Part shown: positions 261-29,016 of the stretch, piece by piece | How positions within the stretch are numbered: the first letter of the stretch is position 1 | Layout: the number at the start of each line of letters is the position of its first letter | IMG/VR virus record: IMGVR_UViG_3300017912_001074 | Span: 1-29,188 of that record | Source: a virus | Taxonomy: Duplodnaviria; Caudoviricetes | Length of the DNA: 29,188 bases | Reading direction: 5' to 3' (one strand) | The notes under the pieces: generated by a model | Database searches by the model: none | Seen by the model: the letters and a program-made list of their open reading frames with translations, nothing else | Told to the model about the DNA's origin: nothing | Program-made: the position numbers and the translations under genes

Positions 261-466
261 CTTGCCTCCTGAGGTGTTATGGTGTCTATTGAATCAAAGT
301 GTAAGAGTGTCCATGTATCTGTAGCTACATCATATCTCCATGGTGCCCAACGCTTTGCTATCCACCTATCTTGATCTACTGAGCTCTTTATAGCACCAGG
401 TTCTAGTTGTTTAAGACGTGGGTTAGCTAGTAGTTGCATTACATCTTCTTTGATCTGTGACTCCAT
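239..466 (-). CDS. hypothetical protein
   Basis: 75 aa ORF overlapping both flanking methyltransferase genes in operon fashion; true start may be the second Met. Confidence 0.55.
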   Translation of the reverse strand: MESQIKEDVMQLLANPRLKQLEPGAIKSSVDQDRWIAKRWAPWRYDVATDTWTLLHFDSIDTITPQEARCLARQT

Positions 467-966
467 AGGTGCAGTCTTCTGCGTCCATCACGATAACGGT
501 GTAGTTCTGTTCTTGTATCACACATTACACTGTCAAATAGATCTCTCCACTCCTGGGGTTCTAGCAGTGTAACATGTGCATTGCGTCCATCTGCTAGTGT
601 TTTCTTAGCAGGATCTAGATCTATTATGTGGAATGTAGTATCTCTTATGCATGAGTTGAACCATGCGAGAACACCTGCTTTGCCTTGTAGATCTGCTAGT
701 TCTATATGCTCTAGCACATCAACTGAGTATATGCAGTCCCAATATCTTGATTTCCAGTCTTCACTTGCAAACTCTTCTATGCCTGGTTCGTAGCGATGCA
801 CTCGTGCTCTTGGATGTAGTTGTTCAATCCACGTTGCTGTGCCACCTTTGCCACAACCAAAGTCAAGTATGCTTCGTGTTTCTGGTCGTTCACCTATGTA
901 GTCTAGTATTGCGGGAAATTGTTTGCCAACACCTGAATTTGGAAACTGTGTGTGAAAGTCGCTCAT
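439..966 (-). CDS. class I SAM-dependent methyltransferase
   Basis: ILDFGCGKG motif I and YSVDVLEHI motif. Start reassigned to ATG at 966 (MSDFH...) because the ORF-track extension runs through the structured non-coding element. Confidence 0.85.
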   Translation of the reverse strand: MSDFHTQFPNSGVGKQFPAILDYIGERPETRSILDFGCGKGGTATWIEQLHPRARVHRYEPGIEEFASEDWKSRYWDCIYSVDVLEHIELADLQGKAGVLAWFNSCIRDTTFHIIDLDPAKKTLADGRNAHVTLLEPQEWRDLFDSVMCDTRTELHRYRDGRRRLHLWSHRSKKM

Positions 967-985
967 AGTGTGGCCTTTTTGTGTA

Positions 986-1155
986 GTAGAAAGACTGCAA
1001 GATAGTATCAAATGGCAATATGATATATGTTCAAGTTTGTGTTCTCTAGACTCTGACGAAATCACGCTAAGTCCTAAGAGAATATATCATGTCATATAAA
1101 ACAAACAAAATGCGAAAACACAAACGGAGCTTTACGAACTTTGCAGTCTTTCTAC
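986..1155 (-). ncRNA. candidate structured non-coding RNA or leader (~170 nt)
   Basis: Perfect 15 bp inverted repeat 986-1000/1141-1155. Nested stems 1020-1028/1082-1090, 1042-1047/1077-1082 and 1049-1052/1070-1073. TATAAATA lies 5 nt upstream on the minus strand. Confidence 0.55.
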
Positions 1156-1160
1156 ACATG

Positions 1161-1736: not shown

Positions 1737-1768
1737 ATTATATAATACATTGAATACATTAAAGACAA
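1737..1768 (-). promoter_or_regulatory. possible sigma70-type promoter
   Basis: TATAAT at 1742-1737 and TTGTCT at 1768-1763. Spacing is 20 bp (non-optimal) and the spacer contains a direct repeat AATGTATT x2. Confidence 0.35.
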
Positions 1769-2034: not shown

Positions 2035-2071
2035 TGTTATTGTGCTATTATATGGTAAAAAATGGATCTTG

Positions 2072-2314
2072 TCAACCTCTTAGACGCAGACTATTGAATC
2101 CTGCACGGCATTGCCTGCATTCAAACTTCCAAACCAATGTGTCATGTGGATACCATGGGTTGAAATTGGGTGATGTTTTGTAGTTTGCGCTTTTGCGTAT
2201 CATGTAGCGATCACCACCGCATTCTAGGCATGTATGCGTTGTGTGAAAATGATCTCTTCGTAGATTGTTGCACTCTTGACTGTGTGGTGCTACATAGTTT
2301 GGTCTTTTTGGCAT
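2072..2314 (-). CDS. zinc-ribbon hypothetical protein
   Basis: CLECGG...CRQC pair; GGGAGG RBS. Confidence 0.65.
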   Translation of the reverse strand: MPKRPNYVAPHSQECNNLRRDHFHTTHTCLECGGDRYMIRKSANYKTSPNFNPWYPHDTLVWKFECRQCRAGFNSLRLRG

Positions 2315-4249: not shown

Positions 4250-6553
4250 TTATGCTCCTAGATCCTGTTTACCACCAAATGATGTTGCACCACCATTTGC
4301 AGTGTTGTCAATTAGATAGTTTATAAATGCTTCTAAATTGCGTCCTGTTCTAGTTGTGCCATCAGGTATTTGATATGTATAATTTGAAAACTCTGAACTT
4401 ACAATGCTACCATCTGGAAACTCCATACCTAAACTGCTTTTACGCCATCTAACTTGACATGTAACACCAGGTTGTGTAGGTAATCCTATTTTTATAGTCA
4501 TAGGATGATGATTACCTGTGTTGAATATTGTATCTAATCTACTACCATCTATTGTGCCATGTCCATGATTAGGATCTCTCAATGGATATAATATTTCTCC
4601 ATCTTGTCCTATGTCAAAAAACAATTCTCCATCTAGATAGTAACGGAACACTAAAAAGTCTACACTTGTATCTATTGGACATATAATACTTGCTTTGTAT
4701 TGTCTTGCAAAACCTAAGTCTTCAAATTTTGCTACACCAAAGTTGCCATCATACACATCTCTATAAGGAGAACCACTAGGATAGTATAACAAAGGCGATG
4801 TGCCATCTGCTTGTGCATAACCTATATAGATACCTCTTAGACTGTATGTAGGTGTAACTGCTTGTGTGAATATTTCAAACTGCGTAACACTTGGATCTGG
4901 ATCATCCCATTCAGGCGGTAGTGGATTATCCTGTGTTGGATCATCTGGATCAATAGGAGGAAATATACCAATTGGTTTTGTTGGCACATTTCTTACATAT
5001 GGTCCAATATAAAATTCATCTGGTCTATACAAAGGTGGATCTATGTTAATTTGTTCACCTGTTGTAAATGGATAAAGCGTAGCATCATGTTCTGTTGCTT
5101 CTATGTCTACCAATCCATCTGGTCTTAGTTTTGATCCAACTACTCTAAATGTATCTAAATTAAGATCTAACACTGTATCTGTTACGCGAATAATATCACC
5201 AACTTCTACTTCTAGTAATTCTTGACTTGCTTGAAAACTAATTGTGCGTTGCTTTCTTGATTTGTCATAGATCATTTGTGCAAGGTCTCTTGCAATCGCT
5301 TTGTTTGTTAGTGTGTGAAAAGTAAATTCACCTGTTAGCAATTCATCATTGTCTATGGTTTGGTCACCATCTACATCATGCACAACCTGTTGGTTTGTAA
5401 AATCTTTGTCAGGATCAATATAGTTTACAATAACTTGATTGTATTTAGAACCTTTTCTTTCACCTGTAAGACTTATACCACCTATGATTTCTGATTTGTC
5501 TACATCATATGCAACATTTACACTAGTAGAACTTATGTCAGTAGCATTGCCACCATCTTCAACTTTTAGTTTGTATCTACCCTGTATAAAAGGCATTATA
5601 CCTCTACAACCTGCTGTAAGAGCTTTTACATTGTCTAAAACTTTTTGATCTGTGCCAACAACAGCATTTAAGGTTAGTGCTCTACCACTCTGTCTGTTTG
5701 AATACCTTACAGTTTGCTCATATTTGTTAGCGGCAATCTTGAAAGTGTCTGCATTGATTTCTGTTGTGCTTAGTCCAACACCATATCTTGAGTTTTCAAG
5801 ATAATCTAACAAACAACTTGCAGGATTTATTTGATAGCTCTTTGATCTTGAACTATAACTACCGCTTAGATTTAGGCCGCCCCCATGCGTTCTAACATCA
5901 TAAACTTTTTTACCATATACATCAAATTTTGCTTGAGGTATACCACCTGAGAAAGGATTGTTATCTGCATCCTCTTGTGTTTTAATTTCTTTCCATTCAT
6001 AACGGATAACAGCATAAGCAAGTCCTGGTAATTTTCTTTGTTTCTTACCCCAACTAGCACTTTCATTTGCTAGACTGCTTTGTCCTTGACCTTCTGTTCC
6101 ATTGAATACTTGTAATTTTATTCTGTCTTTGTATCTTGTAGAAGTTATTGTGTAGGTTTGACCATGTGTGTATTTGCCTCCACTAGGTTTAGGTAATTCA
6201 ACATCGTTGATTAGGATTCTACCAACACCTTCTATTTCACCTTCACATAGTGCATATACAACATACAAATATTTGTTAGATGTGCCATTTGTTTCTGTAA
6301 AGATGTTAGATCCACCTACTCTACGAAAACCATACACAACAGGCACTGCAACATTTGTGCCTTGTTTTGTAACCTGCACACCTTGTGCTTCTGAACCTGG
6401 ATCAGGAACTTGTGGTGTATCTAGTGCGCCAAAAGGATTGATTACAAATCCAATTACATCACCTACAAAGTTTACTACCGCTTTGACAACGCCAACGACG
6501 ACTTTTACAATGCCTTTGACAATATCTTTTACTGCATCAACTACGCCGCCCAT
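4250..6553 (-). CDS. tail tip / central fibre protein (lambda gpJ/GTA-like)
   Basis: VPVVYGFRRVGG, LCEGEIEG, NPASCLLDYL..RYG and LEVEVGDIIRVT motifs typical of tip proteins; synteny. Confidence 0.85.
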   Translation of the reverse strand: MGGVVDAVKDIVKGIVKVVVGVVKAVVNFVGDVIGFVINPFGALDTPQVPDPGSEAQGVQVTKQGTNVAVPVVYGFRRVGGSNIFTETNGTSNKYLYVVYALCEGEIEGVGRILINDVELPKPSGGKYTHGQTYTITSTRYKDRIKLQVFNGTEGQGQSSLANESASWGKKQRKLPGLAYAVIRYEWKEIKTQEDADNNPFSGGIPQAKFDVYGKKVYDVRTHGGGLNLSGSYSSRSKSYQINPASCLLDYLENSRYGVGLSTTEINADTFKIAANKYEQTVRYSNRQSGRALTLNAVVGTDQKVLDNVKALTAGCRGIMPFIQGRYKLKVEDGGNATDISSTSVNVAYDVDKSEIIGGISLTGERKGSKYNQVIVNYIDPDKDFTNQQVVHDVDGDQTIDNDELLTGEFTFHTLTNKAIARDLAQMIYDKSRKQRTISFQASQELLEVEVGDIIRVTDTVLDLNLDTFRVVGSKLRPDGLVDIEATEHDATLYPFTTGEQINIDPPLYRPDEFYIGPYVRNVPTKPIGIFPPIDPDDPTQDNPLPPEWDDPDPSVTQFEIFTQAVTPTYSLRGIYIGYAQADGTSPLLYYPSGSPYRDVYDGNFGVAKFEDLGFARQYKASIICPIDTSVDFLVFRYYLDGELFFDIGQDGEILYPLRDPNHGHGTIDGSRLDTIFNTGNHHPMTIKIGLPTQPGVTCQVRWRKSSLGMEFPDGSIVSSEFSNYTYQIPDGTTRTGRNLEAFINYLIDNTANGGATSFGGKQDLGA

Positions 6554-14185: not shown

Positions 14186-14890
14186 TTATATTCTTACACC
14201 TTTTGCTTTCATTATCTCACGATACTGTAAGCGGTGTTCTGGATTATTCATGTCCAGTTTTGTTACATCATTGTCTACCACAGGAGGTTGTTTACCTACA
14301 CCTTGTCCTGTTCCAGCACCAGTTGGTCCTGCTTGGACGAAATGCGGATTTGCTGTAAGGAATTCATTTACTAGGGTAGATACAGATAATGGATTACCAC
14401 TTTCGTCATATCTAACCTGGCCATTTGCATCAATGACATCAACAGCACCTGCTTCATTTAGCTTAATTTGCGATTTCAACAGTTGCACCACTTGTTGTGG
14501 ATTTACTGCTTTTGCCGCACTTGCTTCATTTAGCAATGCACCATCAACTTTGATAGTATGCAATTCAGTTTCATACTGTTGAATTTTGCCTGTGAATTTC
14601 TCCGCCTGCTCTTTCAACAATTTTTCAAACTCGCCGCGTTTTTCTAATTCTTCTTGGCGTGCTTGTTCCTGTTTGCCTACTAGCTCATTGTATAGATCAA
14701 GATCAACATTTGAATATTTCTTTTCAAACTTTGCTCTTTCTCTTGCTACCCTTTCTGCTACAATACGATTTACATCATCTTGTGACAGTGAAGGTTCTTC
14801 CTTAACAGTTTCCTGTGTGTTTGCGACCTGCTGTTCTGTTTGTGGAGAAGCAGTTGTCTCCGTTTCATTTACCGCTGATTCTGCGTTCAT
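14186..14890 (-). CDS. capsid scaffolding protein
   Basis: SQDDVNRIVAERVARERAK coiled coil, NPHFV...GAG C-terminus; directly upstream of the capsid gene. Confidence 0.85.
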   Translation of the reverse strand: MNAESAVNETETTASPQTEQQVANTQETVKEEPSLSQDDVNRIVAERVARERAKFEKKYSNVDLDLYNELVGKQEQARQEELEKRGEFEKLLKEQAEKFTGKIQQYETELHTIKVDGALLNEASAAKAVNPQQVVQLLKSQIKLNEAGAVDVIDANGQVRYDESGNPLSVSTLVNEFLTANPHFVQAGPTGAGTGQGVGKQPPVVDNDVTKLDMNNPEHRLQYREIMKAKGVRI

Positions 14891-14950
14891 TTTATTACCT
14901 CTTTCGTTATGAGTTGAGTCTACTCCCTGCCCTCATAAGCAGTATGTTAT

Positions 14951-14958
14951 TATTTATA
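14951..14958 (-). promoter_or_regulatory. T4-late-like promoter TATAAATA for scaffold/capsid
   Basis: Exact TATAAATA in the intergenic gap upstream of the scaffold gene. Confidence 0.55.
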
Positions 14959-14977
14959 CAAATGTATAAAAAATCCT

Positions 14978-27643: not shown

Positions 27644-28530
27644 GTTCCTTCAAATAGTTCTCTTTTGTGTCTTGTTTGTGCAAGCATCTCCAAACACAAC
27701 TTGCGTTGTTGGTCTGTGTCCCATAATCTTAGGTGGCCCTGTAGATATTCATTCCAAGGTGTTGCATACTTGTGTGCAGGTGACGCTCCTGTGGTCACAG
27801 CAGGCACACCTGCTACGATGCTTTCAACTGCCGCTACACTGTGTTGACTTATGGTCACAGCATAACGACCATCTTCTAATTGATCTGTTAGTTCACCATT
27901 TAGTTGTCTTGTTTTTCTTGATGGTTTGTGTCTTATGTCATAGTCTACGCCCATACGCTCTAGTTCTTGAACAACACCTTTGATCCATGCACTTTTGGTT
28001 GTTGCATAGTAGTTGGTATACACATGTTCTGAACAGGGCACAATGAGCGCACGACCACGCACACCATCTAGTCCTGTCATTGAGCGTATGTGTATGAAAT
28101 GATGCCAACAGTTGAGTGCTTTGTGTGAAAACTCTTGCAGTAGCGTGTTGATTCTACGTTCGTGTGAGTCTAGATCTATATTACCAAGTGTGCCATGTGT
28201 GCCTTGACTCCAACGCACCCATTCTTTTGCACCTGTTGGATTGTGTGCTCTTGCCCAATTGAAATGTGGTAAGAAAGGATTGTCCCAAAAGCGCCAACTA
28301 CCGTGCCATATCTCACGAGGATGTTGAAAAGGTTTGTCATAGAAAGGATCACCTGGTTTTGATGCCCATGTGTTGCCAAACTGTATCAACAATCTATCTC
28401 CTTCAGTCTTTGAGATATCCCAACAGGGTTCGTAGTTGTCTATGTGTATGCGACCATCGTCATTTGCGTCCTTTTGCACCCAATAACCCCAGTGCAGTCC
28501 ATGACGCTGTTTTTGTGCCCAGAAGCTCAT
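27628..28530 (-). CDS. glycosyltransferase-like protein (GT-B / capsule-biosynthesis KpsS-like C-terminus)
   Basis: DIRHKP and VTISQHSVAAVESIVAGVPAVT motifs. Confidence 0.6.
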   Translation of the reverse strand: MSFWAQKQRHGLHWGYWVQKDANDDGRIHIDNYEPCWDISKTEGDRLLIQFGNTWASKPGDPFYDKPFQHPREIWHGSWRFWDNPFLPHFNWARAHNPTGAKEWVRWSQGTHGTLGNIDLDSHERRINTLLQEFSHKALNCWHHFIHIRSMTGLDGVRGRALIVPCSEHVYTNYYATTKSAWIKGVVQELERMGVDYDIRHKPSRKTRQLNGELTDQLEDGRYAVTISQHSVAAVESIVAGVPAVTTGASPAHKYATPWNEYLQGHLRLWDTDQQRKLCLEMLAQTRHKRELFEGTWRTL

Positions 28531-28943
28531 TAGAAGTCAGTGCCTCCTTGTGAGAACAGTGATTGTTGAAACTGTATCTGTGGAAAGCGTTCATTGTCTA
28601 TTGCTGAAAACAGTTGTGCTACAAATTCTAGATCTTCCATTTGTTTTTTGCTTAATCTACAGATGCCATACTGCTTGGTGTTACGCCAATAGTTTGCAAG
28701 CAGTCCTGTTACCACACTTACCACTGAGTTAGGTCCATTGCGACCCTTGTGTAGATGCTTGGGTCGTCTTTTTTGTAGTGCGTCCCATAGGAAATCATCT
28801 TTGCTTTGTCCTGCATGACTGATGTAGTCACACCAATCTATGAGTTGTTCAAAATACCAAGCACTGTCATCAGGATGCATGTCCATGAGTGGATTGCGAG
28901 GATCTCTGCCTACTGAACTTGGTGAATATTTTATTTGTTTCAT
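28530..28943 (-). CDS. hypothetical protein (putative early gene)
   Basis: Start reassigned to 28943 (MKQIKY), with ACGGAG RBS; 137 aa. Confidence 0.7.
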   Translation of the reverse strand: MKQIKYSPSSVGRDPRNPLMDMHPDDSAWYFEQLIDWCDYISHAGQSKDDFLWDALQKRRPKHLHKGRNGPNSVVSVVTGLLANYWRNTKQYGICRLSKKQMEDLEFVAQLFSAIDNERFPQIQFQQSLFSQGGTDF

Positions 28944-28987: not shown

Positions 28988-29016
28988 AATATAGCATGAA
29001 ATTGGCACAGTGTCAA
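28988..29016 (-). promoter_or_regulatory. sigma70-type promoter
   Basis: TTGACA (29016-29011), 17 bp spacer, TATATT (28993-28988) with an extended -10 TG. Confidence 0.75.

Follow-up and report, generated by a model that had tools for sequence, protein, structure and literature searches.

Predicted late-type antisense RNAs of small aquatic siphoviruses and their pairing bias towards own early gene starts

The 29,188-nt stretch of viral DNA analysed here (the window), estimated to be 94% of a siphovirus genome, carries on its minus strand a predicted structured RNA that is conserved as a family, follows a late-type promoter box and displays loops directed against the starts of the phage's own sigma70-driven genes. 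We consider it likely, with a probability of roughly 0.6, that this RNA acts as a multi-target antisense switch which ends early translation. The family itself we regard as real and new, an uncatalogued set of structured, putatively antisense RNAs whose target logic is supported by comparative statistics and whose function is predicted. The original prediction, of a late-expressed multi-target sRNA that shuts off early translation, keeps its core, in that a bias towards pairing with own early starts was found against null controls; the effect is modest, and some details of promoters and accessibility did not hold. If the reading is right, the early-to-late translational switch of this phage would be built of RNA.

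The predicted RNA and its family

The window codes for a complete head and tail of siphovirus type, and so has its own encapsidation genes, and also codes for methyltransferase, glycosyltransferase-like and HNH proteins. Its nearest named relative is DSL-LC06 (OR003941), whose major capsid protein is 75% identical and whose complete 29.8-kb genome has the same gene set and gene order; this phage has been placed in a proposed family, 'Nanhuiviridae', with a predicted Pseudomonadota host (PMC10611076). The family consists of aquatic siphoviruses of ~30 kb related to DSL-LC06 and is globally sampled. Among 185,579 species genomes the sole relative was L564 (NZEU01000001.1), a 28-kb contig in a Porticoccaceae MAG, which is likely a binned phage contig and is weak at best as a host clue for the family.

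The T4 late promoter consensus is TATAAATA, and a T4-type late box with these letters stands on the minus strand at 1168–1161 (one of two perfect copies in the window genome), where it is predicted to drive a small RNA of ~177 nt (981–1157, minus strand). The transcript is a prediction from the fold of minus-strand 1157–981 (z = −3.85), the stability of which was equalled in none of 200 shuffles. A terminal stem of 15 contiguous Watson–Crick pairs joins a 5′ arm (1155–1141) to a 3′ arm (1000–986) and encloses, on the same strand, segment 1 (1118–1131), an anti-SD element that pairs with the ribosome-binding sites (RBSs) of genes 28943 and 1708; segment 2 (1099–1113), which forms a duplex of 14–15 bp over the SD-to-AUG interval of gene 1708; and segment 3 (1006–1025), a hairpin whose 10-nt loop (1020–1011) exposes an anti-AUGGCA seed conserved in the RNA family. 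In the predicted fold the unpaired probability is 0.80 for the loop of segment 3 and 0.59 for segment 2, which is partly open; segment 1 is mostly base-paired (mean 0.33, opening cost 6.2 kcal/mol), so the description of the first two segments as largely unpaired stands for segment 2 and fails for segment 1. The window sequence has no U-tract terminator after the RNA, and the 3′ end is probably made by processing. Directly downstream lies a methyltransferase gene (439–966, minus strand), a common but not obligatory neighbour.

We gathered 156 relative loci through a conserved tail-end gene and found 59 non-redundant candidates with TAAATA followed by a stem, 39 of which were kept by eye, the remainder being dropped as coding or chance; this selection was made before the own-versus-foreign tests described below, and five further RNAs were added by eye. 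What recurs is an architecture in which TAAATA is followed by a terminal stem, unrelated in sequence, around a loop of 25–150 nt. The stem begins 3–7 nt past TAAATA in 36 of the 39 RNAs, under a search that allowed 0–21, and UGCCAU, the anti-AUGGCA seed, is found in the loop of 26 of the 39 (unpaired in 25 of these 26), and in many cases an anti-SD UCC(U) comes after it. In 31 of the 39 RNAs, the window not being among them, the more stable fold is that of the TAAATA strand. A strict rule combining TAAATA, stem and seed picks out 5 of 215 boxes in 12 small genomes versus 0 of 502 in five jumbo contigs, and conservation in an alignment of 12 RNAs is limited to TAAATA and the seed. Because the family is kept by architecture and seed and not by sequence, it is invisible to Rfam and BLAST. 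Rfam gave no match at E ≤ 1 for the window RNA and, on 10 relative loci, one sub-threshold Spot 42 match (E 0.42) that falls at a coding-region position; nhmmer detected no homologous sequence for the RNA, relatives included, and a DNA scan with the terminal-stem 15-mer returned 118 matches, all of them chance.

The RNA usually lies upstream of the methyltransferase, as does the variant carried by DSL-LC06, and is located elsewhere in loci L127, L203 and L206. A second TAAATA separates RNA and methyltransferase in L123, L136, L187, L218, L222 and L237, and G014/L128 and L126 gave no recognisable RNA. The late operons of the window phage and DSL-LC06 are both preceded by TAAATA boxes; after one of these, the scaffold-gene leader contains a near-identical motif of ~30 nt in the window (14890–14960) and in DSL-LC06 (L275, 16731–16800), possibly a cis-regulatory element. 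Several genomes carry two or three RNAs, each with its own TAAATA, or tandem hairpins; such loci include L123 (16750–16840 and 17545–17660), L130 (5592 and 6597), L218 (5821 and 6632) and L169 (11689 and 11796). Besides the anti-AUGGCA seed, loops of L135, L144, L153, L181, L192, L206 and L223 contain a second one that is conserved, GGCUGUCA, and a third, GCUGACAU. No phage target was found for either; no target of GGCUGUCA recurred in pattern scans, in small and jumbo fragments or in lists of jumbo starts, and baseplate-wedge starts, tried as its target, did not fit.

Pairing with early gene starts

The three candidate target genes of the window all lie on the minus strand. Gene 1708 (1199–1708; 169 aa) has a perfect −10 box (1742–1737) and no −35 at 16–18 nt; in place of the −35 there are TGTATT repeats with 9-bp spacing (1737–1768, minus strand), possibly an activator-binding site, and the promoter of its orthologue in L206 (1350–1392) retains three of them. 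A first search of viral contigs found no relative of this gene, and the orthologue was met in the L206 locus. Its protein has a confident predicted fold (pLDDT 89) resembling only uncharacterised phage proteins, and searches with the target proteins against Pfam, Atlas, PDB sequences and Foldseek likewise matched only proteins of that kind. Gene 2012 (1791–2012; 73 aa) encodes a small Cys/His-rich protein behind a 12/12 sigma70 promoter (2047–2075, minus strand; TTGACA-17-TATAAT), and gene 28943 (28530–28943; 137 aa), conserved in several relatives, has an 11/12 promoter with an extended −10 (28988–29016, minus strand). Of the sigma70-like promoters first assigned to 28943 and 1708, that of 28943 is thus borne out, while 1708 has only its −10 box and the canonical promoter belongs instead to 2012. 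TAAATA boxes also stand before 2012 (2034–2029) and 28943 (28974–28969); since two of the three targets carry one, late transcription of them would go on and a post-transcriptional brake would be needed. The gene-2012 family is usually sigma70-driven and often predicted to be leaderless: many orthologues (L162, L165, L215, L218, L222, L124) start 6–7 nt after the −10 box. The DSL-LC06 homologue (L275, 607–760) is unannotated, apparently with an in-frame TGA, and its leader matches the variant seed of the DSL-LC06 RNA over 8 nt.

The complementarities originally reported between the RNA and these starts proved exact in all seven coordinate pairs. The stretch 1129–1120 is a perfect complement of the 28943 RBS (mRNA 28960–28951), both 1112–1102 and 1020–1010 complement the 1708 start (1716–1706 and 1710–1700, respectively), and an overlapping 10-nt segment, 1021–1012, matches the 2012 start (2012–2003). 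The longest perfect complements among 44 gene starts are those of 1708 (11 nt) and of 2012, 28943 and 7035 (10 nt each), and the summed match length of 1708, 2012 and 28943 is equalled by 3 of 12,341 gene triples. The caveat that short matches can arise by chance was met with shuffled controls, in which dinucleotide-shuffled loops reached this sum in 1 of 3000 cases (p 0.0003) and, with complementarity to AUGGCA (the family seed) kept, in 11 of 3000 (p 0.004). Taken singly the matches are weak, because most of the 23 ten-mer matches to the RNA in the whole window genome lie away from starts. When the 44 starts were ranked with accessibility counted, 1708 came first (−11.3 kcal/mol, 14 bp from SD to AUG) and 28943 fifth, in keeping with their proposed role, and 2012 fell outside the top 14, contrary to it. 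Segment 1 pairs with the 28943 RBS at −17.5 kcal/mol and with the 1708 RBS at −13.6 kcal/mol (one bulge), and segment 3 matches the starts of 1708 and 2012. Counting against the own-early-gene reading, the start of the window's major capsid gene pairs with segment 3 at −12.3 kcal/mol.

Each RNA loop was then scored against the start regions behind sigma70-type promoters, in its own genome and in relatives, and the scores were permuted after row and column effects had been removed; exclusion of loci without a scored sigma70 gene left 33 and 29 loci. An initial run on 7 complete genomes gave p 0.01–0.02. Across 33 loci with 80 early starts, own pairing is better (p 0.001–0.005), and the same bias is present with the window excluded (p 0.001–0.008); the complementarity is thus kept in relatives. 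For the early starts of 29 loci the own residual is 0.50 nt (p 0.0004), and the same 29 loci gave null results in each control: −0.15 (p 0.98) for other SD genes, mostly late, −0.03 (p 0.73) for internal ATG windows and 0.02 (p 0.45; energy p 0.10) for reversed loops. Loops taken from the sense strand likewise show no own bias (0.07, p 0.29), in agreement with the minus strand originally assigned to the RNA. When one locus was drawn per similarity cluster, the worst p in 40 draws was 0.015. The own residual climbs with promoter score, being 0.17, 0.45 and 0.75 for scores of at least 9, 10 and 11.

Bases 3′ of the seed follow the spacer of the genome that carries them (18 loci, p 0.0005); codon 3 is tracked less (p 0.019, due to two loci). 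A compensatory change, as looked for in related phages, is seen in L206, where the 1708 orthologue has TTG as codon 3 and the RNA carries the matching change and still pairs. The RNA of L160 pairs over 9–11 nt with three of its own early starts and over at least 10 nt with none of 75 foreign ones, and those of L130, L137 and L172 match their own leaders over 8–10 nt. The own bias is small on average, at ~0.5 nt or 1.2 kcal/mol, some of the 'early' starts in the test are mis-called core genes, and the own residual is zero or negative in 9–13 of the 33 loci, many relatives having no good own target. An automatic held-out set of only 3 loci was null (p 0.50 and 0.83), and six held-out RNAs, chosen by eye, placed their own set at ranks 1, 2, 7, 10, 31 and 31 of 39. 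A first listing of exact matches within the relatives' own genomes contained no full-length (14–18 nt) target, and of 8 loci tabulated, 5 have a seed that stops short of codon 3 in the gene-2012 orthologue of the same genome. As a target score for long loops, free duplex energy was rejected, since chance pairs rich in G–U swamped it (11 of 16 loops scored). The most frequent start of these small phages is AUG GCA (83 of 561), and late and helper-phage genes opening with it are matched by the conserved seed as well.

Late transcription, a probable helper and competing readings

No polymerase, helicase, primase, integrase or sigma match was found among the window proteins with PHROGs and Pfam, in a search that covered the window without ~850 bp of a 30,038-bp contig and in which about half of the accessory ORFs are unannotated. 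None of the 65 accessory proteins encoded by three terminally repeated genomes matched a replication family, and integrase and repressor families are absent both from the window proteins and from these 65 proteins of complete relatives. No polymerase, helicase, integrase or gp55-type sigma was detected in complete relatives, the annotation of DSL-LC06 lists no replication gene, and the late-sigma family phrog_12791 is found in none of 4 small genomes and is present in the jumbo contig. The window, G006, G010, G013 and L275 have no detected replication gene, integrase or late sigma, and their late operons carry TAAATA. Uncultured jumbo T4-like phages with the same TAAATA boxes, related at 41–46% to the Atu_ph07/PA5oct group, encode gp55, a polymerase and a T4-type capsid. 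Only 30 of 537 jumbo proteins are common to the small phages, comprising fibre, glycosyltransferase-like, methyltransferase and similar accessory proteins and one terminase match, and no jumbo replication or sigma protein among the 537 has a match in 12 small genomes. Since the small phages have no detectable polymerase or gp55, their TAAATA boxes are probably read by the gp55 of a co-infecting jumbo T4-like helper, and the family of the window phage probably comprises satellite viruses of gp55-encoding jumbo phages. If so, an aquatic family would be exposed as probable satellites borrowing a jumbo late sigma, a point that we did not find in the family description, which treats taxonomy and host prediction and in which we found neither small RNA, late promoter nor helper dependence (PMC10611076).

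According to the reading we prefer, in which the RNA silences the phage's own early genes, late-type transcription, probably through a helper gp55, would yield a precursor RNA that is cut from a longer transcript at the terminal stem, its paired ends likely being trimmed. Pairing would be nucleated by the exposed seed at AUG GCA starts, with specificity coming from variable segments next to it that change with the early spacers and RBSs of each genome. Pairing would then extend over the RBSs of the phage's own host-promoter genes and block ribosome loading, such that early genes would be shut down translationally once late transcription starts. A broader proposal, which we advance only tentatively, is that 'Nanhuiviridae' are widespread jumbo-phage satellites and that the RNA is a helper-triggered switch, produced solely after the late sigma of the helper has appeared, silencing own host-promoter genes and also throttling, by means of its AUG GCA seed, the helper's tube and sheath mRNAs, with seed cassettes of a modular loop re-tuned in each genome.

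It seems unlikely that late structural mRNAs of the helper (tail tube, tail sheath and other AUG GCA genes) are the main targets and that the own matches are secondary or additional, as in SviR (see below). Such targets would fit the 22 of 30 seeds in which the middle base of codon 3 faces an A (the loops contain 26% A), which requires U there, as in MAL, MAI or MAV starts; this codon-3-facing side of the seed is poorly explained by own genes. Watson–Crick pairing extends at least 4 nt into tube or sheath starts for 9 of 30 seeds versus 2–3 for random AUG GCA sets, the sheath takes first and the tube second place among 37 jumbo families, and the window seed matches a jumbo tube start over 13 nt. 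In L135 the RNA (5168–5350) forms a 19-bp duplex, interrupted by one bulge, over the start of a conserved HNH-like gene adjacent to the jumbo tail sheath (L422 8205, L459 2778, L445 7185). A point against the own-gene reading is that segment 1 matches one jumbo-phage gene start over 12 nt. However, the sheath set was fetched by a pattern requiring AUG GCA and a Leu codon, and both genes were picked after the seeds had been seen; the tube/sheath test is therefore partly circular and amounts to a lead. With G–U pairs allowed, moreover, the mean extension into tube and sheath is not significant (p 0.16–0.17), and targeting of such a putative helper leaves the own-genome bias unexplained.

A generic decoy against any AGGA..AUG GCA mRNA of host or phage, or targeting of host genes, with the own matches mirroring start-site style, is improbable. 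The invariant part is merely UGCCAU with the anti-SD UCC(U), AUG GCA is very common, and the seeds GGCUGUCA and GCUGACAU, for which no phage target was found, would suit a decoy; yet only own sigma70 genes show the bias, which increases as the promoter score rises and is accompanied by slight avoidance of own late genes.

Disfavoured, and hardly probable in our view, is a cis-acting methyltransferase leader or a non-regulatory element (6S-like, packaging or origin) with matches by chance: the stem has no following terminator, the methyltransferase ATG (966) is 15 nt away and the two strands fold equally well in the window (−48.7 vs −48.8), but the methyltransferase has its own TAAATA in several relatives and the RNA lies elsewhere in three loci, which argues against a cis leader, the loop varies between 25 and 150 nt with no conserved bubble and no Rfam match, and the own-target statistics count against it.

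Comparison with known systems

Two traits of trans-acting multi-target sRNAs were found here, an exposed seed directed against the initiation regions of unlinked genes and own complementarity kept under divergence. Beyond the taxonomic paper, and with subscription journals outside the search, we found no published TAAATA-driven satellite or sRNA and no report of helper dependence in this family.

The CI and C4 RNAs are short, have paired ends and exposed seeds, and act in trans as antisense RNAs on the phage's own genes; they are made from host promoters, maintain immunity or lysogeny and recognise fixed, conserved target boxes, and the C4 family is present in Rfam. The P4 CI and P1/P7 C4 RNAs are RNase P substrates (PMC5499578). 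By analogy, the window RNA would be a paired-end antisense RNA with exposed seeds, and its terminal stem is compatible with RNase P maturation. It differs from CI and C4 in being late-type, in having a stem whose sequence is not conserved and in carrying specificity segments that vary from genome to genome. It also shows no sign of lying in a lysogeny or immunity region, in that no integrase or repressor family was matched by the window proteins or by the 65 accessory proteins of complete relatives.

MiniFlayer and MulchRoom are described as having encapsidation machinery while missing key replication genes, MiniFlayer also being without an integrase (PMC10690885). The window family resembles MiniFlayer, so described, in having its own encapsidation genes and no detected key replication genes. 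These are Streptomyces systems with cultured helpers, whereas helper dependence is deduced for the window family, and we found no promoter or sRNA mentioned in the published account of them (PMC10690885). The T4 late promoter is described as an AT-rich TATA box at −10, without a −35, that is read by gp55 (PMC2988020); here, by contrast, the boxes occur in a 30-kb phage without detectable gp55, and their conserved core is TAAATA.

Close in kind is SviR, an sRNA of the Vibrio cholerae satellite PLE with a helper-induced promoter, in which separate seeds pair near the ribosome-binding sites of own and helper mRNAs (10.1101/2022.04.08.487710). With SviR as described there, the window RNA would share a satellite origin, helper induction and seeds for own and helper mRNAs, the induction and helper targets of the window RNA being predicted. 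PLE integrates and uses the helper virion, whereas the window phage has complete head and tail genes and no integrase. In addition, the 5′ and 3′ ends of the window RNA pair with each other and its promoter is a T4 late box, unlike SviR. By analogy, then, the window RNA would work like SviR and like CI and C4, but is a member of neither group.
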